Source: an uncultured Candidatus Saccharibacteria bacterium (GTDB lineage: Bacteria > Patescibacteriota > Minisyncoccia > Phycocordibacterales > UBA12445). Taken from it: a DNA stretch of 64,000 bases. Numbering within the stretch: the stretch's first letter is position 1; each line of letters opens with the position of its first letter. The notes beneath the pieces were generated by a model that saw only the letters and a list, made by a program, of their open reading frames with translations, was not told the origin of the DNA and ran no database searches. The DNA lies in the NCBI GenBank assembly GCA_964649715.1, contig CAZYTH010000005.1, forward strand, positions 1,765-65,764, given 5' to 3'. Positions 81-61,907 of this stretch are shown here, in pieces. The position numbers and the translations under genes are program-made.

Positions 81-1187
81 TCATTTCTTTGAAAATTTTT
101 TACAAAAAAAACGTTCGCACCTCTCTTCTTCCTTCAGAGCAAGACCGATGGCTGTTGAAAACTCAAGTGATTTATTTAATTGCATATCAGGAATTTCATC
201 TTTAAAAAGAAAAAGATTCACCCATGGATTTCCAATATCAACAGATATTCCCAAGCTTGAAGATAAATATTCTGAAATACCAGGAATTGATGCCTGAGAA
301 CCACAGAGCAATATCTTACTTATATCTTTTTCGTTACCAGGACTCTTGTGTGCATTCCAGTACCAATAATGTTTTATTATCTCATCACGAAGACTGGAAA
401 TAGAGGGCGCGAGACAAAAAAGGAGTTCTTGATTTTCTGGAGTTCTTAATAGTCCTTTCGAAAATTTTAACTTATTCGCATCGTCTTCACTCAAATTCAT
501 ATTATCCATTATTGCTCTGGTGAAAAAATCACCACCCATTTTCATTGTATATCCAAACCAAACAACTCCTCTGCTAACAATAGACAAAACTGATGTCGTC
601 CTTCCTACACGCACAATCATCATTGTCCCATCGTAGTCTTTTGGAACAAGCGATCTGGCCATTGATTCTGCTTCAACCTCAAAAGAAAGCGGGGTTATCC
701 CAGAGAGATCCATTATTCTCTCGTATGATTCAACTACGGTTTTTGGTAAGACAGCAACACTTATATCAATATACCCCCCAACCCCAGATACTTCGGATAT
801 TACAGAATAGTCAAAAACAAGCTCATCGGGAGAGTAAGGAATATGTTCCTCCAACTGAAGCTCGACGCTTTCTCTAATTTCACTTTTTCTCATATAAGGT
901 AGCCTGAATTTCAAAAAATAAGATTTTTCTTCTGGGAGCGAAATATGTGCCATTCTTATGTTATATTCTTTTTGAATATCTGTAAGGGTCTTTATCATCG
1001 CCTCGTCTTGTCCTTCATTCTCAAAAGGTTGAACACTTCTCTTAAAATGTCTACCCAAGCGAAGACCATCCCTTGTCGGAATAATTTCGACAAACCTAAC
1101 TGAATGGGAACAAATATCCAAGCCCATCGAGGGAAAATCTAAATACTTTGGTACAGGAAAAAATTCCAAAAAAGATTTCTTTACCAT
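81..1187 (-). CDS. pilM: Type IV pilus assembly protein PilM (actin-like ATPase fold)
   Basis: 368 aa ORF. N-terminal GLDIxSHSVRFVEI motif and overall length are typical of PilM/FtsA-like pilus assembly proteins. Confidence 0.75.
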   Translation of the reverse strand: MVKKSFLEFFPVPKYLDFPSMGLDICSHSVRFVEIIPTRDGLRLGRHFKRSVQPFENEGQDEAMIKTLTDIQKEYNIRMAHISLPEEKSYFLKFRLPYMRKSEIRESVELQLEEHIPYSPDELVFDYSVISEVSGVGGYIDISVAVLPKTVVESYERIMDLSGITPLSFEVEAESMARSLVPKDYDGTMMIVRVGRTTSVLSIVSRGVVWFGYTMKMGGDFFTRAIMDNMNLSEDDANKLKFSKGLLRTPENQELLFCLAPSISSLRDEIIKHYWYWNAHKSPGNEKDISKILLCGSQASIPGISEYLSSSLGISVDIGNPWVNLFLFKDEIPDMQLNKSLEFSTAIGLALKEEERCERFFCKKFSKK

Positions 1188-1766: not shown

Positions 1767-2258
1767 TTGTGGTATACTGGATTAGTGTCCGAGTATAAAA
1801 GAAATCCAAATAGTATATGCTCCGTTTGCTCAAAACCAATCTACAAGAGACCCTCACAAATTAAAAAAAATAAAGGAAAAATTTACTGTAGCTCCGTGTG
1901 CTATGGCATGTCCCTGAGAAAAGAAAAACCTTGCATAATTTGTGGTAAATTAATTTTAGCTGGCCTAAACAAAAAAACTTGTAGTAGGAAATGTTCAAAT
2001 AAAAACAGGGCGGGTATAAGATACAAAATTGGAAGACCAAAGGATAAGGTAAGTTCACTGCGAATTATAAAAAGAAGATTAATGAACGACAGAGGAGAAA
2101 AGTGTGAAAAATGTGGTTATGATAAATATGAAATACTACAAATTCATCACAAAAACAGAAACAATAAAGATAATAATTACAAAAATTTAGAAATTATTTG
2201 TCCTAATTGTCATTATGAAGAACATTATTTAGAAAACAGTTGGTTGAGAAAATATTAG
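1767..2258 (+). CDS. HNH endonuclease with N-terminal Cys-rich zinc-ribbon repeats
   Basis: C-terminal ILQIHHKNRNNKDNNYKNLEIICPNCH is an HNH motif. Two CxxC...C motifs lie N-terminal. TTG start assumed from the ORF track. Confidence 0.65.
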   Translation: MWYTGLVSEYKRNPNSICSVCSKPIYKRPSQIKKNKGKIYCSSVCYGMSLRKEKPCIICGKLILAGLNKKTCSRKCSNKNRAGIRYKIGRPKDKVSSLRIIKRRLMNDRGEKCEKCGYDKYEILQIHHKNRNNKDNNYKNLEIICPNCHYEEHYLENSWLRKY

Positions 2259-3658: not shown

Positions 3659-6600
3659 TTATTTATATTCTCTTAGCCAGAAATGTTCATCTTTTATTTT
3701 AATCAAAACTTTTGATGCCCCCTCTGGTCTTAAAAAAGAAAGTGATGAATTTGAACCACTCTGTTGTTTAACCAAAAAGAAACCAATTGCATCTCCTTTA
3801 GAAAAAAGCAAATCATTTATCTTTCCATCATTACGCATACTAAAAGATATTAAGGTATCTGATTTCTCCATGCCAGGGGTATATCTATGTATTTTTGGCA
3901 ATGATTCAAATGTGCCATCACCTTTATTTAAATAAATAATAAGATAACCACGATTACATAATAAGACAATGTCCTTTTTGCCATCATTATTATAATCAAT
4001 TGTAGCGGAACCCAAAATATCTAGAACTAAATCGTCTATATACCTCGTTCCATAATCTTTTCTTTCCTCAAATTCACCGTTGTTTTTTCCTAAGAAAATA
4101 CTAAAAACAGGAGATTGGTAGTCATAATAGACCCCGTTACTTAAACCAGCAGAATATGACGCTACAGCTAAATCAGAAATTCCATCATTGTTAAAATCGG
4201 CAATGATTGGTTTTCCTGGATAAGGTAGCGTGTAATATGTATTTTTCTTTTCTAATTCACCATCTTCATTTCCGAGCATTATTGCAATCGTACTTGTATT
4301 AAAATCAGAAGCAACAACATCACCAAATGTATCATTATTTATTTTGCCCGCTGTTAAGTATGCTTGTGCGACAGAATTGGTTGAGAATTGTTCGTCAAAA
4401 TTTGGATTTCCGTCATTTTTCAAACCGCCATTTTTCAAAACAGTAATTCCTGGAGTCCCCGCCACGATATCAATCTTTCCATCTCCATTTATATCAATAA
4501 TATCCAAATATTGGAAATAAGGAGAGTCTGTTCCAAAATAGATAGGCTGTTTAAATGTATTATCACCCTTGTTCATAACAACCGAAACATTTCTGTCATC
4601 ACCGACAGCAACTATATCAGCCTTTCCGTCACCGTCCAAATCCCCTATTTTTACTTTGCGTAGTCTCCATCCAACTGAAAATTCAGATACATTGTATTTA
4701 AAACCATCGATATTTTCAGTCCCATTTTGATTACTCAAAAAAACAGAAATTGAGGAAGCCTTCTTATTTGCTGTCACAAAATCAGGTATGCTGTCATTGT
4801 TGAAATCATAAATATCAATACCCCATGTTTCAACATCAGTACCATTGCTTCTAATTAATTGTTTAAGTTCTTTATAGTCTAAAGAGCTAGTCGTTTCGCT
4901 ATTTGCCTTAATCAAAGAGACACCATACATAACAACATTATTACCTTCTTTTTTTGTCATTCGAAGCGGAGATGTAAGGACACCCTTTGGATCAAAAGCT
5001 ATCTTTATTTCTTTATCATCATGCTTAACACGAAATCCGATATCAACAAAATCGACAAAAGGCAAACTACAATCTTTTGTTCCTGTCATTAGTTTTGTTT
5101 TTTCACAATTGCTCGTTTGGGTAAAAGTTTCTGTGGTGCATTTTGTTGCAGGATCAGGAGTCCATGTTGTATCAACACAATCCCCAACATTCACGGTCAC
5201 GCTCTTTGAATCACTTCCCCCGGGACCTTCACAAGACAGTGTGAAGGTTTTGCTTTCTCTTAAGCTTCCTGTGGACTGAGAAGAGTCAAGGGTTCCTAAT
5301 GTTCCAGGAGCTAAAGTACCCGACCAACCAGTACCACTTCTTGTACAAGATGTGGCGTTTTTGGCGGTGTATCTGATTGTTGTGGCTGTGTTGTAATCAA
5401 CAAAACCGTGACCAACCGTCAGAGTGACTTCTGGTGGTTTTATGCTTACAGTTTTTGAATCTTCTACTTTTGCACCATTTATTCCAATACATTCAACCTT
5501 GTATGTTTTTGAGGTGGTGAGGTTGCCAGTAGAGAAACTTGATAAACTTGTGTAGCTACTTGACCAATCCCCTGACCAATCCCCAAGTCTCCTACAAGAA
5601 ATAACGTTTGTTGTCGTGTATGTTAGTGTTGCTGGCGTATTATAATCAACGAGTTCTTTGTCGACTGTGAAGTTTAAAGTTGGTGAATCTAAAGGCAAAC
5701 TACAATCTTTTGTTCCACTAATACCTGTTCTAGTCGAACCACACTCTGTACCCGTTTGGGTGAAAGTTTCTGTAGTGCATCTTGTTGCAGGGTCAGGAGT
5801 CCATGTTGTATCAACACAAGCCCCGACATTCACGGTCACGCTCTTTGAATCACTTCCCCCGGGACCTTCACAAGACAGTGTGAAGGTTTTGCTTTCTCTT
5901 AAGCTTCCTGTGGACTGAGAAGAGTCAAGGGTTCCTAATGTTCCAGGAGCTAAAGTACCCGACCAACCAGTACCACTTCTTGTACAAGATGTGGCGTTTT
6001 TGGCGGTGTATCTGATTGTTGTGGCTGTGTTGTAATCAACAAAACCGTGACCAACCGTCAGAGTGACTTCTGGTGGTTTTATGCTTACAGTTTTTGAATC
6101 TTCTACTTTTGCACCATTTATTCCAATACATTCAACCTTGTATGTTTTTGAGGTAAAAAGATTACCAGTAGGGAAACCTGATGCACTTGTGTAACTACCT
6201 GACCAATCCCCAAGTCTCCTACAAGAAGTAACGTTTGTTGTCGTGTATGTTAATTTTGTTGATGTATTGTAATCGACTGAATCGTTCTCGACTATGAAAT
6301 TTAGAGTTGGGGCTCCTGGTTCTGCAACAGAAACAACTACCTCTTTTTCAACATCACTACCTCCTGGGCCAGAACAATTCAGTCTGTAGGTTTTGCTTTC
6401 TGTTAAGCTTCCTGTGTCCCAAGAAGAGCTAAGTGCCCCTGATGATGCATTAGGAGGTAACGAGCCACTCCAATCTCCGCTTTTTGTACAGGATGTTGCG
6501 TTTTTAGCTGTATATTTAAGATTGGTTTTTTCTCCATAATTAAGATTTTGTTTAGTAGCCTCTAATGTAACAACTGGAGGGTTTATACCTATTATTACGT

Positions 6601-8455
6601 CCTTCTGCTCTTTATTATCCTTAGAATCTAAACAGACTAATACAAATTTATATTCGGCCTTTAAATCGCCCGTATATTTAGAATTAGGTGAGGTATGAGA
6701 ACCATTCGATAACGTTAGATAACCATCATTACTACCGTTCTTTGTAAAGTAACAGCTTTTGGCATTTTTAACAGTATACCTAAGGTATGTGGCTTTATTA
6801 AAATCAACCTTTTCTGCGTCAGTTGTTAACGTAACCTCTGGGGCGTTTGAATACAGAGTTACTTCCTGCTTCACATCTCTCCCCCCGGGACCATCACAAG
6901 TTAGTGTAAATGTTGTTTGTTCTTTTATTGAACCAACATTTGTACTTAGGTTTACAAAAGAACCAGTTGTTGCTGAAGGATTTAAAGAGCCTTTCCAAGA
7001 ATCGTTTCCAGTTCTTGTACAAGAGGTGGCATTTTTAACACTGTATGTAAGGGTTACGGTATCTTTATAATCATAATTTATTTTATTGTCTTTAGCGCTT
7101 AACGAAACCTCTGGAGCGTTTATGCTTATGGTCACTTCCTTTTCTCCAGCGTCTCCTCCTGGTCCTGAACAGTTTAATTTAAATGTTGTACCAACCTTTA
7201 AGTTTCCTGTGGTTATGCTTCCAATTGCAATAGAGCTAAGAATAAGATTATTGTATGTACCACCGCTTAGTTTACAGGATGTGGCGTTTTTGGATGTATA
7301 TTTAAGAGTGGTGGCTTTACCATATTCAACGCTACTATCAACAACCGTCAGTGTGGATTCTGGAGCGTTTATACTTACGGTTTTTGTATCTTCTACTTTA
7401 TTACCATTAATTCCAGTACATTCAACCTTGTATGTTTTTGAGGTGGTGAGGTTGCCAGTAGTTACATTCGTGGCGCTTATCCCAGAGCCAGTCCATCCGT
7501 CGCTTCTCTTACAAGAAGCAGCATTTGTTGTCTTGTATGATAACGTTGTTGATGTATTGTAATCGACTGAATCTTCCTCGACTGTGAAGTTTAGAGTTGG
7601 ATCATTTATCGTTACCGTGGTTTCTGCACTAATATCCTGATTTAAACTATTTTTACAATTTATTTTGAAGGTTTTTTGTTCTTTTATCTCTGGAGAAGGC
7701 CTCGATAATACGGTTTGGTTTGTCCCTATGACTTCACTCCAATTGCTTGTACAACTCTTCGCATTTTTTGTTTCCCAACTAAGATTCACTTTTTCCCCTG
7801 AATTGACTTTATCCCTGTCAGATTTAATTGTAACAGTCACTGGGTTTTGTACAGGACCTTCAAAAGGAGGATTTTCCTCTACGGGAGTATTTGTCGTCGC
7901 ACCATAAACATTGATAAGGAAATCTGGAATAGTTCCACAATTTCTCCACGCACAATCAATATAAGCGGAAGTATTAGGATAACAATAAGCTACTCTGTAA
8001 GAATTTGCAGATATTTTTCGAGAACCATTAATATTCTCTACTGTCCAAGTTTTCGTGTAAGTATTGGACTGATTAGCACTTCTCCCAACCCCCTCTCTGT
8101 TTGATCCGTTTGAGCACAAACTGGTTCCAAATACATCATAAAAACCATAGAGGTCGCTTCTAATGCCCTGAACAGGCGTAGACATAGGTATTACTCCTGT
8201 GGCTGATTCTGTAATGGTGCAAGTAATCTTACTAAGAGCCTTAACACTAGCACCCGATCGAATCACATTTTCATTTGCATCTTTGCAGGTAATTGACGCT
8301 ACAAAACCGTCACCACATTTATTTGTTTCGCCCGCAGAAGGATGTTTCTGCCCAACCTCTCTGCATTCCGCTGCTTCCCCTGTTGCTGGAAAAAAAATAA
8401 ACAAAAAACAAATAAAAGAAAAAAATAAGATAAGTTTTTTTAGATTAATTTTCAT
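3659..8455 (-). CDS. Giant secreted surface protein (1598 aa): signal peptide, several Ig-like ~100 aa repeats with conserved Cys pairs, C-terminal FG-GAP/VCBS-like repeats
   Basis: N-terminal MKINLKKLILFFSFICFLFIFFPATGEA signal peptide. Repeated LNFTV..VDYN..T.L.Y..NA.SC...W.G...K.Y.L.C.GPGG modules. C-terminal DGDGKADIV, INGDGKIDIV and NNDGKKDIV motifs typical of FG-GAP beta-propeller repeats. Confidence 0.7.
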   Translation of the reverse strand: MKINLKKLILFFSFICFLFIFFPATGEAAECREVGQKHPSAGETNKCGDGFVASITCKDANENVIRSGASVKALSKITCTITESATGVIPMSTPVQGIRSDLYGFYDVFGTSLCSNGSNREGVGRSANQSNTYTKTWTVENINGSRKISANSYRVAYCYPNTSAYIDCAWRNCGTIPDFLINVYGATTNTPVEENPPFEGPVQNPVTVTIKSDRDKVNSGEKVNLSWETKNAKSCTSNWSEVIGTNQTVLSRPSPEIKEQKTFKINCKNSLNQDISAETTVTINDPTLNFTVEEDSVDYNTSTTLSYKTTNAASCKRSDGWTGSGISATNVTTGNLTTSKTYKVECTGINGNKVEDTKTVSINAPESTLTVVDSSVEYGKATTLKYTSKNATSCKLSGGTYNNLILSSIAIGSITTGNLKVGTTFKLNCSGPGGDAGEKEVTISINAPEVSLSAKDNKINYDYKDTVTLTYSVKNATSCTRTGNDSWKGSLNPSATTGSFVNLSTNVGSIKEQTTFTLTCDGPGGRDVKQEVTLYSNAPEVTLTTDAEKVDFNKATYLRYTVKNAKSCYFTKNGSNDGYLTLSNGSHTSPNSKYTGDLKAEYKFVLVCLDSKDNKEQKDVIIGINPPVVTLEATKQNLNYGEKTNLKYTAKNATSCTKSGDWSGSLPPNASSGALSSSWDTGSLTESKTYRLNCSGPGGSDVEKEVVVSVAEPGAPTLNFIVENDSVDYNTSTKLTYTTTNVTSCRRLGDWSGSYTSASGFPTGNLFTSKTYKVECIGINGAKVEDSKTVSIKPPEVTLTVGHGFVDYNTATTIRYTAKNATSCTRSGTGWSGTLAPGTLGTLDSSQSTGSLRESKTFTLSCEGPGGSDSKSVTVNVGACVDTTWTPDPATRCTTETFTQTGTECGSTRTGISGTKDCSLPLDSPTLNFTVDKELVDYNTPATLTYTTTNVISCRRLGDWSGDWSSSYTSLSSFSTGNLTTSKTYKVECIGINGAKVEDSKTVSIKPPEVTLTVGHGFVDYNTATTIRYTAKNATSCTRSGTGWSGTLAPGTLGTLDSSQSTGSLRESKTFTLSCEGPGGSDSKSVTVNVGDCVDTTWTPDPATKCTTETFTQTSNCEKTKLMTGTKDCSLPFVDFVDIGFRVKHDDKEIKIAFDPKGVLTSPLRMTKKEGNNVVMYGVSLIKANSETTSSLDYKELKQLIRSNGTDVETWGIDIYDFNNDSIPDFVTANKKASSISVFLSNQNGTENIDGFKYNVSEFSVGWRLRKVKIGDLDGDGKADIVAVGDDRNVSVVMNKGDNTFKQPIYFGTDSPYFQYLDIIDINGDGKIDIVAGTPGITVLKNGGLKNDGNPNFDEQFSTNSVAQAYLTAGKINNDTFGDVVASDFNTSTIAIMLGNEDGELEKKNTYYTLPYPGKPIIADFNNDGISDLAVASYSAGLSNGVYYDYQSPVFSIFLGKNNGEFEERKDYGTRYIDDLVLDILGSATIDYNNDGKKDIVLLCNRGYLIIYLNKGDGTFESLPKIHRYTPGMEKSDTLISFSMRNDGKINDLLFSKGDAIGFFLVKQQSGSNSSLSFLRPEGASKVLIKIKDEHFWLREYK
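5061..6369. repeat. Intragenic tandem duplication (two units of about 640-655 bp) inside the giant surface protein gene. The core 5152-5515 and 5791-6154 is near-identical (364 bp, 2-3 mismatches).
   Basis: Direct comparison of the two stretches. A more divergent third copy of the repeat end lies near 7391-7462. Confidence 0.8.
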
Positions 8456-8505: not shown

Positions 8506-9327
8506 TTATAAATCAGTTACTAACCACAACCTTCCCTCCTCCATTGTCGGAAGATCAGCTTGTGTTTGTGCTTTTGTTTTTTTCTCTATTATTAATCCAC
8601 CTCGAGTATTGGTAACACCCAAAACATTAGCTGTCTTATTGACCAAAAGAGAACCTGCTTCTAAAATTTCTTTTATCAAAACGTTGCCTCCTGGATTTTT
8701 ATTTTCTATGTACTCGTAAACAACGCCGTTTGATAAAGTCTTTTCTTCCGATTCCCAAAAACCAGTTTCAGAACTACTGCATACCCAGCTTCCCGCTGTA
8801 CTGCCTGCAGGTTTCTGATACTTCAAGACTTGACCGTCTGAACAAGCAGCTTGAGGGAAACTCAATATTTTTTTTATTTCAACAGCCCAATTATTAACAG
8901 TGTCTCCTACTCCTGGTGTTATACTTATACAACTGTCCCCCAAACAAAAACCTTCTGCCTTAACCTTGCCACCGACTGTAAGTTTTTCAAACAAATTCTT
9001 CCAGTTATTTTTTGCTTTTGCTTCGTTTATAAACACATTACCTGTATTTTCATTTTTTATATTTGGTGTTGTGCTTATTTTTGACCAAAAACTAGATCCA
9101 CCTGGCGTAAAACTCTGAGTACAACTTACTTCAGCTCCAGCACTATCGTATATACAAAACTTAGTGGCACCTATCATAGCTTTCTTGATTTGGTCGCTTG
9201 TCCCCACATTTATTGGGGGCTCTGTGTTGCCTCCAGGAGGGACTTCTGTCGGTTGAGACCATGCAGCAAAGGATGTCCCTGAGAAGAACATCAGGGCTAA
9301 AATGATTAGAGTTTTTATTTTATTCAT
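8506..9327 (-). CDS. Hypothetical secreted protein (signal peptide)
   Basis: 273 aa. N-terminal MNKIKTLIILALMFFSGTSFA signal-peptide-like sequence. No recognisable domain. Confidence 0.45.
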   Translation of the reverse strand: MNKIKTLIILALMFFSGTSFAAWSQPTEVPPGGNTEPPINVGTSDQIKKAMIGATKFCIYDSAGAEVSCTQSFTPGGSSFWSKISTTPNIKNENTGNVFINEAKAKNNWKNLFEKLTVGGKVKAEGFCLGDSCISITPGVGDTVNNWAVEIKKILSFPQAACSDGQVLKYQKPAGSTAGSWVCSSSETGFWESEEKTLSNGVVYEYIENKNPGGNVLIKEILEAGSLLVNKTANVLGVTNTRGGLIIEKKTKAQTQADLPTMEEGRLWLVTDL

Positions 9328-9361: not shown

Positions 9362-9679
9362 TTATTGTAAGAGTGACTCTAGTATCTTTGCCCTTTCTTC
9401 CTCCTGGGCCTTCTTGTCTATATTGCTCACTGGGGTGTCTTCTTTGAGAAGCTCTTGGACAATATCGTTTCTTTCCTCTTCGGTTAATATTTGTGATGGA
9501 ACTCCTTCGTCTTTCAAGAGTTCTTCTATCAGAGCATCTCTTTCTTTCTCCTTTTGGAGTAGAGCGTCTTCTTCAGAAATCTTTGTGCTTTGTATGAAGT
9601 AAAAGAAAATGAATAATAGGGAGAGAGTTAACAGTAAAGCTAAAAATACCCACAATATTTTTTTGTTGTTTTCTTGCAT
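9362..9679 (-). CDS. Small membrane-anchored acidic coiled-coil protein
   Basis: 105 aa. One N-terminal TM segment (ILWVFLALLLTLSLLFIFFYF), then a Glu/Lys-rich tail. Confidence 0.4.
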   Translation of the reverse strand: MQENNKKILWVFLALLLTLSLLFIFFYFIQSTKISEEDALLQKEKERDALIEELLKDEGVPSQILTEEERNDIVQELLKEDTPVSNIDKKAQEEERAKILESLLQ

Positions 9680-15966: not shown

Positions 15967-17490
15967 TTATTCTGTATATCTTATTCTTTTTTTGAGCTTC
16001 TCAAATAGCACATTTATTTTGACCTGAAAATATCTTTTTTCTTTTTCATAATCTGGATTGGTCTTCCTGTTTTCGTCTAGAATAAGATTATCCCCTAAAA
16101 TTTTTTCTATTTCAGACAATCTCCACAATAGTCTATAAATATTATCAATCTTTTTATTTAATTCCCTTTTTTTATTAATAGAAATTTCAGATAAATCGCT
16201 GTCCTTCAATTCCGCTTTCTGTGCTTTTAATTCTTCTAATGAATTACTTAGTCGTTCCCTTGGGTTTAGTGAATTAACCTCTTGCGCAATCTGTTCTATT
16301 GATAAATAATTCTGTTCTATCGATCCATTTTCCAAGGACTCTTGAATCCTTCTTTCTGTTTCCATGGTAATTTTATCCTTTTTGGTGGCGACGTCCTCTT
16401 GTTTGGGTGTTTCTTTCTTGTTTAGTTTTTTGCAATATTCTTCAATTTTTTCCGATGAGATGAGTTCTCTTAATACCCCTCTTATTATTCTTTTTTTCAT
16501 GTCAAAATTATCTGCTTCCGGACCTCCTGGAGGCATTCCCGCATTGACCCAATCTTTATATCTAGCCATCAAGTGACGCAGAGGTATTATGACCAAAACA
16601 AGATCGTCCACTTTTTTCTCTAAAGTAAGCGACATTTTCTGTTTGGACATTTCTGTTTGTTTGCCCTTTTTCTCCCCTACATCTTTGTTGGTATTTATCG
16701 TAAATTGTATACCTGTGCTTTTGGAATCAGATTCGACGTCAACTCCTCTTAGCCTATTTTTTGTTTCTACAATAAAATCTATTTTATATTCAACATCCTC
16801 AAAAAAATCTACATCTTTTACATCAAATTCCGCTTCATGATCGATTTCCAACTTCTTTAAAATTGTTTTAACAAGTTTTTCGGCTACAAATCCGCCTCTC
16901 TCTAGACTTTCTTTTTTATTTTCAGGTAGCCTTGTTCCGTATGCTTGCTTTTTTCCTTCATCAGTAAATCCGCTGCTGTGTTCGTTTATCGCTATTTGTT
17001 CGTCCAATAATTCTCCGATTAGAGACGAAGTTCTTTCTACGATATATCTCTTTCTTACATCGCGTGGAACAGTAAGAGGATCGAGATTATAATCATTGCC
17101 CCAATCATAATCTGTAAAAATTGTACCCAGAGTTACTCTTATGTCACCCACAAAATAAAAGTCTCCTTCTTTTTTAACATTTCGAACGTTTCTGCCCTCA
17201 ACCTCTTCTATTTCTACCAACTCATTGTTGTCTATTTTTCTAAGATTTTCCCTGAGACCTTTCATTATCTCTAATTTTTTTTCTTGAATCTCATATATTT
17301 CTGTCTGTTTTTCCGGGGTATTCAAAAAATACTCAGATCTGCTTTCGATGAGTTTAATTTTGTCTCTCAGTATCTCCGGGTCTTTCTCTCTAAATTCACC
17401 TTTTATATTTTTGCCATAATCTCTTAGAGCTATTTTTTCAAAAAATTCTCTCATATTTTTTATTAAATTTTTATTGTTATACTTTAGCAA
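15967..17490 (-). CDS. Hypothetical coiled-coil protein (507 aa)
   Basis: Long ORF with coherent, charged, Lys/Glu-rich composition and heptad-like segments. No recognisable catalytic motif. Confidence 0.45.
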   Translation of the reverse strand: MLKYNNKNLIKNMREFFEKIALRDYGKNIKGEFREKDPEILRDKIKLIESRSEYFLNTPEKQTEIYEIQEKKLEIMKGLRENLRKIDNNELVEIEEVEGRNVRNVKKEGDFYFVGDIRVTLGTIFTDYDWGNDYNLDPLTVPRDVRKRYIVERTSSLIGELLDEQIAINEHSSGFTDEGKKQAYGTRLPENKKESLERGGFVAEKLVKTILKKLEIDHEAEFDVKDVDFFEDVEYKIDFIVETKNRLRGVDVESDSKSTGIQFTINTNKDVGEKKGKQTEMSKQKMSLTLEKKVDDLVLVIIPLRHLMARYKDWVNAGMPPGGPEADNFDMKKRIIRGVLRELISSEKIEEYCKKLNKKETPKQEDVATKKDKITMETERRIQESLENGSIEQNYLSIEQIAQEVNSLNPRERLSNSLEELKAQKAELKDSDLSEISINKKRELNKKIDNIYRLLWRLSEIEKILGDNLILDENRKTNPDYEKEKRYFQVKINVLFEKLKKRIRYTE

Positions 17491-24887: not shown

Positions 24888-26585
24888 ATGAGTGATTTTG
24901 ACGACATACAAGGACAAAAGAAATTAGAGGATATAAAAATTCGGGAAGCCGAAGAGTTGGCTCAAATTCTATCAGGAAGATATAGCATCCCTTATGTTGA
25001 CCTAAGCTCTATCTCAATAAACACTGATGCTCTCAGAATAATAGAAGAACCCATTGCCAGAGACTCAAAAATAGCTGGATTTCAAATGACCGGCAAAAAG
25101 ATAAGTCTAGCTGTACTATCCCCCGCAAATCCAAAAGTTGATACTGTTTTAAACAATGTTCGAGAAAGAGGTTTTGAACCCGTGCTTTTTATAAGCTCAG
25201 AAAAAAGCCTTGAAAGAGCGTGGGAAAGATATAGCGAGATATCAAAAGCGGCTGAAACAAAAGCTGGACTTATTGATGTCTCAAAAGAATTGCTTACCGA
25301 AATACTTGAAAAAACAAAAGGGGTTGAGGACATAAAGAAACAAATAGAAGAACTAACTAAAGACAATAAAACCCAAGGAGTATCTAGAATACTTGAAATC
25401 ATCATTGCTGGTGCTCTCGCAACAAAAGCCTCAGATATTCACATGGAACCCCAAGAAGAATCAGTGAGATTAAGATATCGACTGGACGGTATTCTTCATG
25501 ATATAGATTTTTTCAGTCATCATGTATATAAACTTATCGTTTCAAGAATAAAATTAATTTCTGCACTCAAGCTTAATGTTAAAAAAAGCTCTCAAGATGG
25601 AAGGTTTACGATAGGAACACAAAACAAAGACATTGAAGTAAGAACATCCGTTCTTCCCGGGGTCTATGGCGAGACCATTGTTATGAGACTTCTTGATCCA
25701 GACTCTATATCAATAGATCTTGAAATGATGGGAATTGAAGAAAAACTTCTTCGAATATTCAACGACGAAATAAAAAAACCAAACGGTCTTATTCTAACAA
25801 CAGGACCAACCGGTTCCGGAAAAACCACGACTCTTTATGCTTTTTTAAGAAAGGTCAATGATCCAGGTAATAAAATAATCACAATCGAAGATCCTGTGGA
25901 ATATCACATGAAAGGAGTTTCTCAGACTCAAGTCAGTGAAGATGGCGGATACACTTTCCTTGAAGGTCTTCGAGCGGCTCTTCGTCAAGATCCCGATATC
26001 ATTATGGTAGGAGAAATAAGGGACTCAGAAACGGCAAAAATCGCCATAAACTCAGCTTTAACAGGACATCTGGTATTCTCTACCCTTCACACAAATGACG
26101 CAGCTGGAGCGATTCCAAGACTAGTGGACCTTGGAATAAATTCAAAAATCATTGGCTCGGCCCTTACTCTTGCAATAGCACAAAGACTTGTAAGAAAACT
26201 TTGCGCTAACTGTAAAAAAGCAGTTCCACCAAATCCCGAAGAAAGTAAAATAATCAACATTGTATCCAAATTGATAAAAGAAAAAAGACCAGAGATTGAA
26301 GTTCCAGAAGGGAAAGAAATATGGGTCGCAGGAGATGGATGTGAAATATGCAATGGGGTCGGATATAAGGGCAGGACTGGTGTCTTTGAGGCAATAATGG
26401 TTGATCCTGATGTCACAAGAGTTATTACAGATAAAGTTAACGACAGAGAAATTAAAGATGCTTCAAAAAAACAGGGAATCTTGGATATGAGGGAACACGG
26501 AATACTAAAAGTATTGCAAGGAATAACATCAATAGAAGAATTAGAAAGAGTCGTCCAGTTAAAGTTAGCAGAAGAAAGTTATTAG
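24888..26585 (+). CDS. pilB: Type IV pilus / type II secretion ATPase (PilB/GspE family)
   Basis: Walker A LILTTGPTGSGKTTTLYAF. Motif GEIRDSETAKIAINSALTGHLVFSTLHTNDAAGAIPRL. C-terminal CxxC...CxxC zinc motif. Confidence 0.85.
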   Translation: MSDFDDIQGQKKLEDIKIREAEELAQILSGRYSIPYVDLSSISINTDALRIIEEPIARDSKIAGFQMTGKKISLAVLSPANPKVDTVLNNVRERGFEPVLFISSEKSLERAWERYSEISKAAETKAGLIDVSKELLTEILEKTKGVEDIKKQIEELTKDNKTQGVSRILEIIIAGALATKASDIHMEPQEESVRLRYRLDGILHDIDFFSHHVYKLIVSRIKLISALKLNVKKSSQDGRFTIGTQNKDIEVRTSVLPGVYGETIVMRLLDPDSISIDLEMMGIEEKLLRIFNDEIKKPNGLILTTGPTGSGKTTTLYAFLRKVNDPGNKIITIEDPVEYHMKGVSQTQVSEDGGYTFLEGLRAALRQDPDIIMVGEIRDSETAKIAINSALTGHLVFSTLHTNDAAGAIPRLVDLGINSKIIGSALTLAIAQRLVRKLCANCKKAVPPNPEESKIINIVSKLIKEKRPEIEVPEGKEIWVAGDGCEICNGVGYKGRTGVFEAIMVDPDVTRVITDKVNDREIKDASKKQGILDMREHGILKVLQGITSIEELERVVQLKLAEESY

Positions 26586-46980: not shown

Positions 46981-48780
46981 TTACTCACTTGCCTTCAACT
47001 CCGCTTTTGCCTTCTTTATCGCCAGAAGTTGTGATGGATCGGATGTAATGATTTGATCCTCTGTATAAGAAGAAATGACTTTAATCGCCACGTGTTTAAG
47101 ACCAGCAAAGAATATCCCCTCCCCGACATTTGATTCAAGCAAGAGATATTTTTCTTCATCTGTTAGGTTGAAAGTTTTTTTGACTATATCTATTGAAGCT
47201 GGTGATTGTTTGAAAAGTATTTGCATTGAAGAGTTGGTAATAATAGGGACTCCGTATGGAGATTCAAGAAAATCTTTCACGTCCTGGGTTATTGTGGTAA
47301 GACCAAGGAAATATTTTCTTCCTCTTTTTGCAAGACTGAAAAGGAAAGATGCTGTGTCGGGGGATTTCATCATCCACCACGCCTCATCTATAATAAGCAT
47401 TCTTTTTCTAAGTTCTCTTCTTACTGATCCCCAGATATTATTCATGACAATATGCATTGCTACCGGTTTTAGTTCATCTTCCATATCCCTAACTGAAAAA
47501 ACGACAAATTTTTTGTTTATATCAACGTTTGTTGGTCTGTTTAAAAATCCTGCCCATGTTCCTTGTGTGAATTTTAGAAGTCTTTGTGCAAGAGAAGCTC
47601 CTCCTTCCATTCCAGCCAATACCAGCTCTAAGTCGGAAAGAAGCGGAGGTGTGGTGCCTGAAAAATCACTGTCGGCTGTTATGTCTTTGAGCGCGTATGT
47701 TTCCCTTATCGCATTATCCATTATCGCATCTTCTTCGGGCGTCATACCAGAAAGCATTATTCGAAAGAGACCGACAAGGTTTATGATATGGGAACGTAGT
47801 ACATCGGAAGATGATTCGTCTTCTCTCACAAATGGCAGGTCAAAAGGATTTATGTGGTGTTCTGATGTTAAAGAAATATTGAAATATCTTCCACCCACCG
47901 CTTCTGCCAGGAATTCATACTCCCTCTCAGGGTCAATAACAATAACATCAACATCAAACATAAGCGATCTAAGTATTTCAAGTTTTGTGAAATAAGATTT
48001 TCCTGATCCTGACTTTGCAAAAATTACGGAATTGTAGTTTTCCAGAGAGAATCTATCAAAAAGTATTAAACCTGAATTGTGTCTGTTTATTCCATAAAGG
48101 ATTCCTTTGTTTGATGTGAGGTCAAAAGAAATAAATGGAAAAACGCTAGATAATGGAGAGGAGTTTAGTTTCGTGTTTACTTGAAGCCTGTCTGACGCTA
48201 TCGGAATTACACTATTGAATCCTTCTTCTTGCTGAAAAAGAGCGGGTTTTATATAAACAAGACGAGATTCCATCATTGTTTTCACTTCTGCTTCTACTTT
48301 ATTCAATTCCTCTTCGTTACTTGCGTATAGCGTTATATAAAGCCCGACATCAAATATTTTTTCTCTTGCTTGTTGGAGTAGGTCTCGGAGAGTTTCAATA
48401 TCTTGAAAAGCTGTATCTAAGATAGGGTCTCTTACCATACCCTTTGCCTCGTTTGCGTGTATTTGGCTCTGTACTTCAGCCAGTTTTTTCTGGAGTTGTC
48501 TCAAAACAAGAGAGGTATCTATCGGATGAATGATTACAGAAACATCAAATATTTTGTCTAAATTTATTATCGGAGAGAACCAATTTTCGGAAAGAAAACG
48601 AGGATAAGAAATAACATAAAATGTTCTAGCCACTTTCTCCCCTATTTTTATGTTGTTTGATCCAACCTCAAGAGCAGATGGAGAGATGACATCCCTTAAC
48701 TCTAAAACTCCGCTTGAATAAATATCTTGTGGTAAGATGGCTTCTATTTTATTATCTTTATTTTTTCCAAAAAAATCCAT
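46981..48780 (-). CDS. Type IV secretion ATPase VirB4/TrbE/TraE family, ATPase part (599 aa)
   Basis: Walker A IFAKSGSGKSYFTK. Walker B MLIIDEAWWMM. Conserved VirB4 middle region (...ILPQDIYSSGVLELRD...FYVISYPRF...). Confidence 0.8.
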   Translation of the reverse strand: MDFFGKNKDNKIEAILPQDIYSSGVLELRDVISPSALEVGSNNIKIGEKVARTFYVISYPRFLSENWFSPIINLDKIFDVSVIIHPIDTSLVLRQLQKKLAEVQSQIHANEAKGMVRDPILDTAFQDIETLRDLLQQAREKIFDVGLYITLYASNEEELNKVEAEVKTMMESRLVYIKPALFQQEEGFNSVIPIASDRLQVNTKLNSSPLSSVFPFISFDLTSNKGILYGINRHNSGLILFDRFSLENYNSVIFAKSGSGKSYFTKLEILRSLMFDVDVIVIDPEREYEFLAEAVGGRYFNISLTSEHHINPFDLPFVREDESSSDVLRSHIINLVGLFRIMLSGMTPEEDAIMDNAIRETYALKDITADSDFSGTTPPLLSDLELVLAGMEGGASLAQRLLKFTQGTWAGFLNRPTNVDINKKFVVFSVRDMEDELKPVAMHIVMNNIWGSVRRELRKRMLIIDEAWWMMKSPDTASFLFSLAKRGRKYFLGLTTITQDVKDFLESPYGVPIITNSSMQILFKQSPASIDIVKKTFNLTDEEKYLLLESNVGEGIFFAGLKHVAIKVISSYTEDQIITSDPSQLLAIKKAKAELKASE

Positions 48781-48819
48781 GTTTCAAAATTAAAATTTAA
48801 AAATCAAAAGGTTATAAAA

Positions 48820-49467
48820 TTATACCTTGGGAACACCGCCTTGTTCATCGGGATTGAATATTTTGTAAAATAGTTCTATCAACTCCTCTGTTCCTAAAGG
48901 GACCGATCTTACACCGCTTCTACTTAATCCTTGTGTAACAACGCTAACTCTTTGCTCTATCTGTGTCCTGTTTTCTTCGAAAGTAAGTAATTCTTGCCTT
49001 TTTTCTTCTCTTGAATCTTTTCCTCCACCAAAGATGCTGAAGATTTTAGAAGAAGCTCCGCTTGCAGATTGCATCACAGGTGGTGAATATGGAACGACAA
49101 CATAGAAAGATTTTTCCATTATGTTTACTCCTTCTGTAAAACCCCTGATGAAATTTATATATTCTCTTAATTGTATTTTGAGAAGCTCGCTTGGTTGAGA
49201 GCTCATTTTTTCTGACATTGAAGATAGATATGGTCTTATGTCCAATCTTCTTGATTGGATTAGTATTTGAACGGTAAAATCAAGTGAGTTAAGGAAGTTT
49301 TGGTATTGCATTATTATCGCTTGTTGTTCGTCGGATGATTTGAGAGCGAAGTTCAGTGAAGAGCACATAAATATCATAAGCATAGTTCCATCTTTCAGGA
49401 CGACTATCCCATCTCTTATTTCTTTTATTGGAACGAAATCTTGTGTGCTTTTATTATTATCGGCCAT
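48820..49467 (-). CDS. Separate ORF encoding a VirB4-type N-terminal domain (215 aa)
   Basis: IPIKEIRDGIVVLKDGTMLMIFMCSSLNFALKSSDEQQAIIMQYQNFLNSLDF matches the N-terminal domain of Gram-positive-type VirB4/TraE proteins. Lies 39 nt upstream of the ATPase ORF on the same strand. Confidence 0.6.
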   Translation of the reverse strand: MADNNKSTQDFVPIKEIRDGIVVLKDGTMLMIFMCSSLNFALKSSDEQQAIIMQYQNFLNSLDFTVQILIQSRRLDIRPYLSSMSEKMSSQPSELLKIQLREYINFIRGFTEGVNIMEKSFYVVVPYSPPVMQSASGASSKIFSIFGGGKDSREEKRQELLTFEENRTQIEQRVSVVTQGLSRSGVRSVPLGTEELIELFYKIFNPDEQGGVPKV

Positions 49468-49473
49468 ATATTC

Positions 49474-49555
49474 AATTACGAATTTTTAATTACTAATTAC
49501 GAATTAAACTTTTTCTTTTCTTTATTTTATCATCAATCATTATTAATTCGTAATT
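49474..49555. repeat. Cluster of aattacgaat-family repeats (two direct, one inverted) in the spacer between the VirB4 N-domain ORF and the PrgI-like gene
   Basis: caattacgaat 49474-49484, ctaattacgaatt 49493-49505, aattcgtaatta 49544-49555. Confidence 0.6.
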
Positions 49556-49982
49556 ATTTTATTTTCTCCTGTATATCTAAACTCCATGCGATGTCTTTAA
49601 GTTTGCCTGATGTAAGTTTTGGCGTTGCGGTCTTTGGTGATGACGCTTTCCCTATAAGTTGATCAAGGTCGTCAGCTTCTTTTTTTATAACCGTTGCTTC
49701 TTTTTTCCAGAGGTATCTCTTTCCCGAAAGGGTGAAGCTAAACCACGCTTGGACTATGTCTATAAACGGTCTATCGTTCACTTTATAGTAAGCCAGAGCA
49801 ACAGCAAATGCGATAAAAGGAAGAACGATTATATATGATATAGATCCAATATACGGTTCAAGTATTCTGTACAGCCCATAACCACCACCAAAACCACCCA
49901 AAAGATAAAGGAATTGTTTGAAGGTGAAAGGTCCTACGACCTTATCCTCTACTTCTATGAATTGTGGGACTTGGAACTGCAT
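49554..49982 (-). CDS. PrgI-family protein (VirB3-like type IV secretion component)
   Basis: MQFQVPQFIEVEDKVVGPFTFKQFLYLLGG N-terminus typical of the PrgI family, followed by two TM helices. Confidence 0.6.
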   Translation of the reverse strand: MQFQVPQFIEVEDKVVGPFTFKQFLYLLGGFGGGYGLYRILEPYIGSISYIIVLPFIAFAVALAYYKVNDRPFIDIVQAWFSFTLSGKRYLWKKEATVIKKEADDLDQLIGKASSPKTATPKLTSGKLKDIAWSLDIQEKIK

Positions 49983-49989
49983 ATATAAT

Positions 49990-50061
49990 CAATTATGAAT
50001 TAATAATTACGAATTACGAATTTTCTTGTACCATTGCTTTATATTTCCTGCCTGCCGGCAG
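49990..50061. repeat. Spacer containing both repeat families: aattatgaattaataattacgaattacgaat (49990-50023) and cctgcctgccggcag (50047-50061)
   Basis: Seen directly. Confidence 0.6.
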
Positions 50062-50084
50062 TTCGTTTTTTTTGTTCTACGCTT

Positions 50085-50762
50085 TTACATCATTTCCCTA
50101 TAGGGATCTGGTGCAATTCCTCCTCCTCCCACCCTTACATCTGTCTCTGTTTTTGGTATTTCTGTCGGTTCGTTTATCTTCTTCTCTAAAATATCCATTC
50201 CGCTAGTTGCTTGAAATCCGAGAATGCTCGTGTCTTGTTTTTTTGTTTCGGTTATTTTGCCTTCTAAGATATCCATCGTTTTTCTGGGCACATTTAAACT
50301 CTCTCTTTCTACTTTTTTCATAATGTTTGATTGTGTCTCTGTCTTCTCTCCTACTGTAAAAACTTTTTGTCCTGCGTGTATGGCTCGCAAAGATTCCTTA
50401 ACTTTGGCGAATATTTTTTCGTTTATTTCCATAACGATATTGCTTGCTTTATTTTTGTCTATACCGAGTCTGGCTACTATACTGCCAACAAATTCCATTG
50501 GGTCGGATACTCCGAGAAGGACAAGTCCTGTCTCCTGCCCTAAAATTGCTGTTTGGTCGACGTGGAGATTGTATTTCTTGCTTGTTTCAAATATCGCTTC
50601 GGCTGAATCAACAGAAGCTATGGCGTCTTTCAGATCTTCGGGCAAGTTATCAAAAATATCGTTCAGCTTATTCCTGTCGTGATTTAAAACAGGCCCACCT
50701 TTATTTAAGGCGATAGTCGGTCCTGATTTGTAAATATTTAATTCATCGTTTTTGAGAATCAT
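50085..50762 (-). CDS. Hypothetical protein (225 aa), type IV secretion locus
   Basis: Coherent ORF. No motifs recognised. Confidence 0.4.
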   Translation of the reverse strand: MILKNDELNIYKSGPTIALNKGGPVLNHDRNKLNDIFDNLPEDLKDAIASVDSAEAIFETSKKYNLHVDQTAILGQETGLVLLGVSDPMEFVGSIVARLGIDKNKASNIVMEINEKIFAKVKESLRAIHAGQKVFTVGEKTETQSNIMKKVERESLNVPRKTMDILEGKITETKKQDTSILGFQATSGMDILEKKINEPTEIPKTETDVRVGGGGIAPDPYREMM

Positions 50763-53291: not shown

Positions 53292-53294
53292 TTT

Positions 53295-60221: not shown

Positions 60222-61907
60222 ATGAAAAATCCCGAAGAATTTATTCGAAAAACAAGAGAGGAGAAAAGTTTCAAAGGCTCTACTAAAGATGATTTTTTGA
60301 ATGGACTACTGGTTCGGGCGAAGGGCGCGGAAGGTGCAGACAGAAAAGAAGTTGAAAAAAAGCAAAAAAACGTACATTTTTCAAATGATCCAAAGGATAT
60401 GGAAGCGGTGTTTGAAGGAGTAGAGCCTGCATTAGATGATTCTGGTGGTGGAGATGGCGTCTCTAAAGTGGCAGAAACTGAAAAAGATGATAATTTGACG
60501 AAAAACAAGGAATTAGAAGATTTTGATGCCGATAAAGTAGCGGATAGACTCTTTGAGATACAAAAGATATTGAAAGATCAGGAAGGTTTGGTCGCCTGGG
60601 CTCCAGAAGATAGAAAAAAAATGATCGGTTTTTTTGAAAAGAATAAATTGATAAAAGAAGAAAAAGAATTAAAAGATAAGATTGATATGCTTGCTGGATT
60701 GATTCCAAATGTTCCAGTTGATCGTTCTGAGCCTCCTGCTCCCTTGAGAAAAAGAGGTCGGCCAAAAAAACCAAATCTCACTGATAAGGAAAAAGAGGAA
60801 ATAGCACAGAAATGGGATTCACAGGACAAAAAGGAGGCAGAGATACTTGAGTATAGAAAAAAAATTGATGAAAAGATTAAAAAGAAATTAAATCTAACAG
60901 AAGAACAAATAAAAATACTTGAAGATGGAGGGAGCGTCACTGTTGAAAATGAAGATAATTTTTCTGAGAATGAGGAAGAAACGAATGATATAAATAACGA
61001 AAGAATTGAATCAGGAATAAGGAGTAAAAAAGGGAAAAAACAAGAAAATAATAAAAGAGTTAAAGAAACTGCTACTCAAAAGATTGAAACAGGCAAGGAA
61101 AATGTTTCTCAAAAAATAGAAGAAATAAAAGGTGTTATTAATAAAGAGTTTGGAGGGGAACCAAAAGAGCCAAAAACGCGAAAAGAACAAATAGAAGTAA
61201 AGGAGAAAGAGTTGATTGAATTGAACAGCACAGAACAGGAGTTGGGTGGCGAGATAAGTTCTAGAAAAGATAAATATAAAGAATTGTTTGAGAGCGACAA
61301 TGTTTGGCGAAATCTTATTAATGGTTGGTGGTTTGAGACTGATACCAAAGAGCAATTAGAAAATGAGATATCTGTTTTAGAAAACGAAAAGAAGGTAATT
61401 AAAGAGGTTATTTCTAGTTTGAAGTCTGAAATAAAGGATTTAAAAAAAGATTATATTGATTCAAGATTGAAAGATATTAAAAATAACGAAAAAGACAGAG
61501 GAGATTCTGGGTACGTTGAACAGGTTTCTGGTGGATATGAGGCAAAAACAGAAGAACTTAGTGGTGTAAATCGTGAGATAGCTTCTTCTGCGGAAGGAAT
61601 TTTTTCTTCAGTTAATGAAAAAAAAGATTTTTTAAATAAGCTAAAAGATAAAAAGAGCAAAATTGAGGAAGAAATTATTATATATGAGATAGAAAATTCT
61701 GATAGTAAAGAAATTTTAGAAAAGATAGAAAAAAAAGAGGATGAGACGTTGAATGAAATTGATGGTTTGAAAATGAATAAAGGCAAAATAAAGAGTGGAG
61801 ATATAGAGCATTCCGAATATGAAAAAAGCATCAAGAGACTTGAGGATAGAATGAAGAAATTGGGTGAGTTAAAGGGTAAAATTTATAAGGAAGCAGGAAT
61901 TATTTAA
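60222..61907 (+). CDS. Coiled-coil protein with AT-hook-like RKRGRPKKP motif (561 aa)
   Basis: Highly charged Glu/Lys-rich sequence with long heptad stretches. GRP-containing basic motif. Possibly DNA-binding. Confidence 0.45.
   Translation: MKNPEEFIRKTREEKSFKGSTKDDFLNGLLVRAKGAEGADRKEVEKKQKNVHFSNDPKDMEAVFEGVEPALDDSGGGDGVSKVAETEKDDNLTKNKELEDFDADKVADRLFEIQKILKDQEGLVAWAPEDRKKMIGFFEKNKLIKEEKELKDKIDMLAGLIPNVPVDRSEPPAPLRKRGRPKKPNLTDKEKEEIAQKWDSQDKKEAEILEYRKKIDEKIKKKLNLTEEQIKILEDGGSVTVENEDNFSENEEETNDINNERIESGIRSKKGKKQENNKRVKETATQKIETGKENVSQKIEEIKGVINKEFGGEPKEPKTRKEQIEVKEKELIELNSTEQELGGEISSRKDKYKELFESDNVWRNLINGWWFETDTKEQLENEISVLENEKKVIKEVISSLKSEIKDLKKDYIDSRLKDIKNNEKDRGDSGYVEQVSGGYEAKTEELSGVNREIASSAEGIFSSVNEKKDFLNKLKDKKSKIEEEIIIYEIENSDSKEILEKIEKKEDETLNEIDGLKMNKGKIKSGDIEHSEYEKSIKRLEDRMKKLGELKGKIYKEAGII

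Follow-up and report, generated by a model that had tools for sequence, protein, structure and literature searches.

The locus and the encoded protein

Within a 64-kb stretch of DNA from an uncultured Candidatus Saccharibacteria bacterium (64,000 nt of contig CAZYTH010000005.1, assembly GCA_964649715.1; the whole stretch is called the window), positions 3659..8455 hold a single unbroken open reading frame (ORF) of 1598 codons. An earlier sequence-only reading of this DNA had described the product as a surface protein, plausibly an adhesin, with a signal peptide, FG-GAP-like and immunoglobulin-like (Ig-like) repeats and two near-identical internal units. The ORF of 1598 amino acids (aa) is confirmed, and the description is corrected as to strand, which is minus. 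As judged from sequence features and structural models, the product is exported, rich in disulfides and rod-shaped, and its two ends carry different modules. Its domains are listed in the order of the protein, with the support for each; HMM denotes hidden Markov model, AF2 AlphaFold2 and pLDDT the predicted local distance difference test score of an AF2 model.

3659..8455, minus strand: whole coding sequence, 1598 aa plus stop (ORF list and translation)
8375..8455, minus strand: putative signal peptide, aa 1-27, reading MKINLKKLILFFSFICFLFIFFPATGEA with the presumed cleavage site before AE (sequence inspection)
7844..8374, minus strand: N-terminal orphan domain, aa 28-204, with 8 Cys (no relatives by sequence)
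5822..7843, minus strand: Ig-like repeats Ig1-Ig8, aa 205-878 (repeat alignment; HMM i-E 1e-27 to 1e-36; AF2 model of Ig7 plus Ig8; Ig/FnIII/PKD folds)
5681..5821, minus strand: linker L1, aa 879-925, with 4 Cys, CVDTTWTPDPATxCTTETFTQT...GTKDC (AF2 pLDDT 57-61, without secondary structure)
5183..5680, minus strand: Ig-like repeats Ig9-Ig10, aa 926-1091 (repeat alignment, HMM matches)
5057..5182, minus strand: linker L2, aa 1092-1133, with 4 Cys, a paralogue of L1 (phmmer L1 versus L2, E ~1e-14; AF2 pLDDT ~33)
4856..5056, minus strand: pre-propeller segment, aa 1134-1200 (AF2 pLDDT <50; the only family match is the start of the first FG-GAP repeat)
3728..4855, minus strand: seven-bladed FG-GAP/VCBS beta-propeller, ~aa 1201-1576 (Pfam, AF2, Foldseek, loop regular expression)
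3662..3727, minus strand: C-terminal tail, aa 1577-1598 (AF2 pLDDT <50; no anchor motif)

The signal peptide is borne out by inspection and by hydropathy, residues 1-29 being the sole Kyte-Doolittle hydrophobic stretch in the whole protein. Neither a pilin-type G/FxxxE motif nor a lipobox is present there, and by its sequence the peptide is of the Sec type, with export of the protein as the predicted outcome. Cysteines are spread unevenly, with eight in the N-terminal domain, two in each Ig-like repeat, four in each linker and only one in the propeller region, a distribution typical of an extracytoplasmic protein. Thr and Ser make up 12.3% and 10.6% of the residues. The codons of the signal peptide, at the 5' end of the coding sequence, contain homopolymer runs (A7, T7, T6 and T8 at 8389-8440, minus strand); these are possible slipped-strand sites, yet such runs are expected in a genome of 36% GC and no evidence of phase variation was seen.

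The N-terminal domain is an orphan in the strict sense. An exhaustive HMMER search of 1.84e9 representative proteins with aa 28-204 returned only the domain itself, and no match was found among PDB sequences or in Pfam. It is proposed here as the putative distal functional or ligand-binding domain.

Ten Ig-like repeats and two linkers

The ten Ig-like repeats lie within aa 205-1091, measure 80-91 aa each, carry two conserved Cys apiece and belong to one family with the signature 'NAxSC ... WsG ... tGxL ... TYxLxCxGpGG'. Ig10 and Ig8 have identical protein sequences (100%), as against 26-57% identity for the remaining eight domains of the array. Linkers of 42-47 aa follow repeats 8 and 10; they have no Pfam match and were found in no other fetched protein.

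Sequence databases give these repeats no name. No Pfam family matches them at E <= 10, whether single repeats or the whole protein are searched, no NCBIfam name applies, and a repeat profile run against PDB sequences found nothing at E <= 10. Structure prediction was more telling. An AF2 model of Ig7-Ig8, built from an input of 70 two-repeat segments from the window and its homologues, reached a mean pLDDT of 86, with the Ig parts mostly >90, and consists of two all-beta domains. By fold comparison it matches tandem Ig/FnIII/PKD modules, including those of the bacterial adhesin and stalk proteins SiiE, RbmA, GhpA and invasin. These confident all-beta domains make 'Ig-like' correct as a statement about fold, so that the term used in the sequence-only reading holds structurally, without support from Pfam or from PDB sequences. 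The array has the tandem ~80-100-residue beta-sandwiches of bacterial Ig-like (E-set) stalk domains, and its repeats belong to no named Pfam Big, PKD or FnIII family.

The repeats are nonetheless widespread. An HMM built from all ten recovers 289 repeats in 39 proteins, with E values down to 4.7e-158; these proteins span Pseudomonadota, Patescibacteria and other lineages, and their end modules vary. Members of this unnamed family (P0002-P0046), recognizable by the pattern 'TLxWsSxNAtSCxaSGxWsG...YtLtCtGpGG', share both the repeat and its two-domain periodicity with the protein studied here. They differ in being fused to glycosidase-like, peptidase, subtilase, delta-60 or NHL modules and not to an FG-GAP propeller, and in having repeats that are at most 82% identical.

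The C-terminal FG-GAP propeller

The C-terminal 465 residues contain the only named families. PF13517 is matched in five stretches (E=1.3e-29; 103 bits, cut-off 26.9), and PF01839 is matched as well (E=1.3e-9; 38.2 bits, cut-off 22.1). AF2 folds ~aa 1201-1576 with a pLDDT of mostly 84-97. Among the top Foldseek matches of the model are the propellers of integrin alpha-V and alpha-IIb (E ~1e-9, probability 1.00; TM score ~0.5 for the query and as high as 0.58 for the target); it also matches ITFG2 and UmbA4, a lectin solved in complex with a cell-wall polymer. A regular expression finds four strict DxD/NxD/NGxxD loops, at aa 1272, 1321, 1420 and 1487, and two degenerate ones, at aa 1217 and 1371; a seventh, SMRNDGKIND, was found by eye. 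By motif these are Ca2+ loops, and metal binding is predicted only. The region thus combines the HMM score, the seven closing repeats and the Ca2+ loops of the FG-GAP/VCBS family, and the FG-GAP assignment is confirmed by Pfam and by the likeness of the model to integrin propellers. Structure prediction, which had been recommended for the Ig-like unit as well as for the FG-GAP region, gave confident models supporting the assignment in both cases.

Two old units sharing an identical tract

The C-proximal part of the stalk is made of two adjacent units, U1 and U2, each comprising two Ig-like domains and a linker. They share a tract without a single mismatch, and a more distant copy lies closer to the N-terminus:

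5681..6307, minus strand: unit U1, Ig7 plus Ig8 plus L1, 627 nt, aa 717-925 (U1/U2 codon alignment)
5057..5680, minus strand: unit U2, Ig9 plus Ig10 plus L2, 624 nt, aa 926-1133 (U1/U2 codon alignment)
5826..6154, minus strand: identical tract, U1 copy, 329 nt, the end of Ig7 and the whole of Ig8 (ungapped comparison, offset 639)
5187..5515, minus strand: identical tract, U2 copy, 329 nt, the end of Ig9 and the whole of Ig10 (ungapped comparison, offset 639)
7109..7597, minus strand: older two-domain copy, Ig2 plus Ig3, without linker (75.5% nucleotide identity over 339 nt to U1, 73.5% to U2; synonymous divergence ~0.7)

The core copies are offset by 639 nt; upstream of a 12-nt indel the offset is 627 nt. 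Near-identity extends beyond the exact tract to 362 nt with 2 mismatches (5154-5515), or to 406 nt at 98%. These are the only repeats of at least 60 nt in the window, which has no long inverted repeats. The near-identical core of '364 bp' given in the sequence-only reading is real and corresponds to the 362-nt range, whereas the units of 654 and 655 bp given there were too long and out of phase with those of 627 and 624 nt. The older, diverged copies that it placed further along the gene are also real, Ig2-Ig3 being one.

The distribution of differences between U1 and U2 is uneven. Over the 612 nt aligned by codon they show 52 differences, all of them outside the 329-nt run (clustering permutation p < 5e-5). 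Nei-Gojobori counts, expressed as synonymous (dS) and nonsynonymous (dN) divergence, are as follows:

5' flank, 51 codons: synonymous differences over sites 13/36.5, dS 0.48, dN 0.15
Core, 109 codons: synonymous differences over sites 0/80.7, dS 0, dN 0
3' flank, 44 codons: synonymous differences over sites 7.5/30.3, dS 0.30, dN 0.17

At the pooled flank rate (~0.31 per synonymous site) the probability of an empty core is ~1e-13, by arithmetic from these counts. Diverged flanks (dS 0.3-0.5) around a core at 0 argue for an old duplication that was later homogenised, rather than for a recent duplication of the whole unit. From the sequence, homogenisation of the tract is best explained by intragenic gene conversion or unequal exchange. 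The sequence-only reading had offered recent duplication or ongoing gene conversion; the contrast between core and flanks favours conversion and disfavours the other option.

The history of the stalk can be read from the sequence. It grew by duplication of a two-domain unit, composed of an A-type and a B-type Ig domain, to which the 4-Cys linker was added later. The two C-proximal units are old duplicates in which a tract of 329-406 nt was recently overwritten by intragenic conversion or unequal exchange, leaving Ig8 equal to Ig10. The identical tract is in turn a substrate for further recombination, which could add or delete a unit of 208 or 209 residues. In several homologues (P0003, P0004, P0010, P0024 and P0025) the repeats most alike are two places apart (i and i+2), which indicates that the two-domain unit of duplication is a property of the whole repeat family.

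It is fairly unlikely that assembly created this pattern, either by giving a wrong number of units (collapse or expansion) or by merging slightly different cores through bubble-popping. The 329-nt exact repeat is longer than common short reads, the gene occurs on a single contig in a single assembly, and searches found no independent copy. Among 36 homologous repeat proteins, mostly metagenomic, no other protein has repeats >82% identical, which fits an assembly bias; this rarity is weak evidence in any case, because assembling metagenomes from short reads disfavours repeats of this sort. An artefact has to be reconciled with an ORF that is intact over 4.8 kb. Moreover, each core has distinct, in-frame flanks that respect domain borders, so that at least two copies of the unit exist, and an assembler does not merge sequences 10-20% apart (the flank rate), so that the cores must really be very similar.

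That the entire 627-nt unit was duplicated in tandem recently, its ends having diverged by fast or diversifying evolution without any conversion, is improbable. The units are indeed adjacent and in frame, and have their three-module layout in common. However, the flank dS values are comparable to that of Ig2 versus Ig7 (0.47), next to a core that has none, and the differences are significantly clustered. The dN/dS of the flanks is 0.3-0.6, not >1, and diversifying selection on the unit ends is therefore no explanation of the contrast. Last, diversity-generating retroelements (DGRs) are frequent in Patescibacteria and two near-identical stretches inside a gene might recall their template and variable repeats, but this mechanism or another programmed hypervariation can be dismissed almost with certainty: both copies are coding, within one ORF, and identical over 329 nt, the mismatches follow an ordinary spectrum (20/24 transitions, of all kinds) and are not adenine-specific, which together exclude a DGR-type mechanism; no reverse transcriptase was found in the part of the ORFs of the window that was scanned, and the protein has no C-type-lectin target domain.

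Relation to known surface proteins

Several groups of proteins resemble the rod in part. The closest in DNA behaviour are the Periscope Proteins (SasG/Aap, Rib/alpha-C, Sgo_0707 SHIRT and CdrA), in which near-identical DNA repeats of folded stalk domains recombine and vary the length of the stalk (PMC8201768). Common features are secretion, a tandem, mostly Ig-like (E-set) stalk and an N-terminal non-repeat domain; very high DNA identity between repeats, which can drive recombination within the gene and changes of length, is found in part, in a single pair of units. The differences are that high identity here concerns two units only, over about half a unit, the other eight domains being far more diverged; that a large propeller stands at the C-terminus, with no wall anchor; and that the organism belongs to Patescibacteria and is neither a Firmicute nor a Pseudomonad. 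Periscope Proteins pair an N-terminal functional domain with C-terminal wall attachment, of which only the N-terminal non-repeat domain has a counterpart here. The protein is thus Periscope-like in mechanism and not a member of the group, because it has no C-terminal anchor and only two such units.

The fibrillar adhesins defined by Monzon et al. (PMC9210967) are similar in length, in Thr/Ser richness, in a rod-like beta-sandwich stalk and in the presence of non-stalk domains at the ends. In contrast, the protein has no Pfam domain of known adhesive function, no known anchor domain and no sortase motif, and the stalk family lacks a Pfam model; of the features that define the class, length and stalk are found, and an adhesive domain and a surface anchor are not. 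A recognisable anchor exists in only about half of the known fibrillar adhesins (PMC9210967).

Among characterized relatives of Saccharibacteria type, the proteins SEML1_0891 and SEML1_0890 of Southlakia epibionticum (PMC10633639) are likewise extracytoplasmic and Saccharibacteria-like, with VCBS/FG-GAP and beta-sandwich domains. There the domains reside on separate proteins, and the comparison was made by description only.

Environmental proteins that join FG-GAP/VCBS with Ig-like domains (P0019, a 'FG-GAP-like repeat-containing protein' of Bryobacteraceae, P0016 and P0038) have propellers 25-34% identical to the present one and comparable Ig-like arrays; their Ig-like domains belong mostly to Pfam Big_3_5 and related families, and they have neither the orphan N-terminal domain nor the 4-Cys linkers. 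The N-terminal propeller of integrin alpha has seven FG-GAP blades, several with DxDxDGxxD-type Ca2+ loops. Its identity to the present propeller is 11-13%, and here the propeller is C-terminal, with no beta-subunit partner, thigh and calf legs or membrane anchor. Integrin FG-GAP propellers have ligand-binding roles.

At the level of the whole protein the gene has no near relative. The identical protein is one entry in the public protein collection (P0001), the sole member of its 90% cluster, and all other matches of the whole protein in that collection are at most 34% identical. A chimeric query made of the N-terminal domain and the C-terminal region retrieved generic FG-GAP proteins and no orthologue, the N-terminal domain and the linkers being matched in none. 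Scanning metagenome contigs for the exact DNA of the repeat core gave no match, and a literature search combining Saccharibacteria with FG-GAP returned nothing.

A candidate attachment role

Taken as a whole, the data are best explained by an exported, rod-shaped, adhesin-type surface protein with stalk repeats homogenised by conversion, a reading to which a probability of roughly 0.6 is given. The architecture is of the adhesin type suggested in the sequence-only reading, since a secreted Ig-like rod with an FG-GAP propeller, as found by Pfam, AF2 and fold matches, has the anatomy of a fibrillar adhesin. In this model the ten Ig-like domains would form a stalk that parts the 8-Cys N-terminal domain from the C-terminal propeller with its Ca2+ loops. 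At least one end would bind another cell, most probably the host bacterium, through one of its glycans or proteins, and the other end, or a partner protein, would hold the molecule on the envelope of the producer.

The attachment role itself is suggested by analogy, from the likeness to fibrillar adhesins, the ligand-binding precedent of FG-GAP propellers and the genetics of Saccharibacteria. In Southlakia epibionticum, envelope proteins with VCBS (lectin-like) and FnIII domains are essential for epibiotic growth, as seen by transposon sequencing (PMC10633639). Their authors proposed that they bind host glycans, leaving 'adhesion or degradative purposes' open (PMC10633639). For TM7x, close-range surface adhesins were proposed to act after capture mediated by pili (10.1101/2024.11.25.624915). 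Prompted by the Southlakia epibionticum VCBS precedent, binding of host glycans is the best guess for the protein studied here.

A number of observations weigh against the explanation preferred here. No known adhesive domain is found, Pfam giving FG-GAP families only, and by search the N-terminal domain and the linkers are unrelated to any known family. The whole protein contains no LPXTG-like motif, no hydrophobic window beyond residue 29 and no sorting-signal family, and the protein may simply be released if it has no known anchor. Only two units are near-identical, compared with many in the classical variable-length adhesins. Short-read assembly could be partly responsible for the number of copies and for the lack of any mismatch in the core. 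A second copy of the gene is absent from the protein scans of genome contigs and metagenome contigs, and length variation was thus not observed. Finally, promoter- and terminator-like sites around the gene occur at background frequency. In view of these points, the earlier adhesin interpretation is reasonable and partly supported, being only partly demonstrable.

The sortase-anchored variant of the model, of the MSCRAMM type, was considered and ruled out; of its marks (LPXTG, a hydrophobic segment and a positive tail) none was found, the regular expression having no match and the C-terminus no hydrophobic segment.

The most serious competitor, somewhat unlikely in itself, is that the protein is not a host adhesin and serves instead as a structural component of the envelope (S-layer-like or matrix) or as a factor that binds or processes glycans, with the propeller anchoring it to the producer's own wall and the N-terminal domain carrying some activity of its own. 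Besides the lack of a known adhesive domain or anchor, this is favoured by the ordinariness of the architecture: proteins with FG-GAP/VCBS and Ig-like domains are common in free-living bacteria of soil and water, with 744 matches at E <= 1e-3 among the scored candidates, many of them from metagenome-assembled genomes (MAGs) of Acidobacteria, Myxococcales and Planctomycetes types. The same Ig repeat is fused elsewhere to glycosidase-like, peptidase and subtilase domains, and the open wording of the Southlakia authors on degradative purposes points in the same direction (PMC10633639). On the other hand, no catalytic family is detected across the 1598 aa, and the stalk with terminal modules, the Thr/Ser content and the length fit the published description of fibrillar adhesins (PMC9210967).

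It is very improbable that the protein is an adhesin at the tip of a type IV pilus, like PilY1 or PilX2, its C-terminal propeller being carried on the pilus. PilX2 of TM7x, a candidate adhesin, does have a heptabladed propeller (10.1101/2024.11.25.624915), the propeller of the present protein is also heptabladed and C-terminal, and PilM and PilB genes lie in the window. However, the protein has an ordinary Sec signal peptide, with neither the pilin-like G|F..E motif nor a hydrophobic alpha-1 helix after cleavage, and its propeller is of the FG-GAP type, not of the RCC1 or PQQ type. No pilin gene adjoins it either, the neighbours being tRNA-Arg and the genes for a 273-aa secreted protein, a 105-aa membrane protein and S20, so that both the pilin-like N-terminus and the linkage to minor pilins characteristic of PilY1/PilX2-like proteins are missing.

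Implications

How ultrasmall epibiotic bacteria recognise and hold their hosts is largely obscure. In the two cultured model Saccharibacteria, a part has been ascribed to type IV pili and to a small number of envelope proteins, one of them with a VCBS domain (PMC10633639; 10.1101/2024.11.25.624915). The adhesin-type reading would make the present gene a candidate 'close-contact' adhesin in an uncultured relative of Saccharibacteria. Its main interest lies in this candidate role and in the wholly orphan N-terminal domain; an end domain without relatives is what is expected of a host-specific, fast-evolving binding module. Otherwise the gene adds an example and not a principle, surface proteins with Ig-like and FG-GAP domains being commonplace, as is the concerted evolution of repeats. 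There is also a practical warning, in that the mosaic repeat makes the gene a likely spot of misassembly in MAGs.

It is tempting to go further and to see here the first Periscope-type host-attachment protein of variable length in Patescibacteria, with the N-terminal domain as a host-specific, receptor-binding tip, the propeller as a lectin on a cell-wall glycopolymer and ongoing conversion and unequal exchange among the units of two domains and a linker tuning the stalk. Such a proposal is doubtful at present. If true, the length of the stalk would be matched to how thick the host's envelope or capsule is, and the target of the propeller would be a glycopolymer of the producer or of the host.

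Genomic context

The organism is probably patescibacterial and close to Saccharibacteria. PolA encoded in the window is 53-54% identical to that of two uncultured Candidatus Saccharibacteria MAGs, the next matches (41-43%) being to MAGs labelled Clostridia and Proteobacteria; the GC content is 32-40%. Together with PilM, PilB and a TraG/VirB4-like ATPase, this identity points to a patescibacterial lineage, for which an epibiotic lifestyle is plausible. The neighbourhood is one of housekeeping genes, in the order PilM, RuvX, HNH ORF, tRNA-Ser, tRNA-Arg, the 1598-aa gene, the 273-aa gene, the 105-aa gene, S20, RuvA, Mur ligase and Fpg; further along the window come PolA, PilB, a class A penicillin-binding protein (PBP), the TraG/VirB4-like ATPase and UvrD. 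PilM (81-1187, minus strand) and a PilB-type T2SSE ATPase (24888-26585, plus strand) are present and unlinked to the 1598-aa gene.

Two small genes precede the 1598-aa gene on the same strand. The nearer (8506-9327, minus strand), 50 nt upstream, encodes a secreted protein of 273 aa whose N-terminus bears the motif 'AWSQPTEVPPGGNTEPPINVG'; no Pfam family matches it, and among 5.8 billion proteins it has only 6 relatives, of which one carries the label Candidatus Paceibacterota. A conserved partnership between the two proteins was considered and rejected, since, at the only locus of a relative that could be read, the gene downstream bears no relation to the adhesin-like protein. The other (9362-9679, minus strand), between S20 and the 273-aa gene, encodes a 105-aa protein that has a single transmembrane helix at its N-terminus and a tail rich in Glu and Lys. 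Just upstream of the 105-aa gene lies the best promoter-like site of the minus strand (TTGCCA-17-TACAAT with TG, 9716-9688), which suggests a transcription unit comprising the genes for the 105-, 273- and 1598-aa proteins, although sites of this kind are no more frequent than background. Terminator-like matches inside the repeats are on the non-coding strand.

Elsewhere in the window, ORFs of 507 aa (15967-17490, minus strand) and 561 aa (60222-61907, plus strand) have no Pfam match at E <= 1e-5. The TraG/VirB4-like P-loop ATPase (46981-48780, minus strand) is followed by ORFs of 842 aa (50763-53291) and 889 aa (53295-55964), both without a Pfam match, and the region 46981-55964 (minus strand) is, by its sequence, probably a patescibacterial type IV secretion cluster. 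The Ig-repeat HMM matches the 889-aa ORF weakly in two places (E 4.9e-7). Between ruvX and tRNA-Ser, a small Cys-rich ORF of the HNH endonuclease type with a TTG start (1767-2258, plus strand) may be the remnant of a homing or mobile element.

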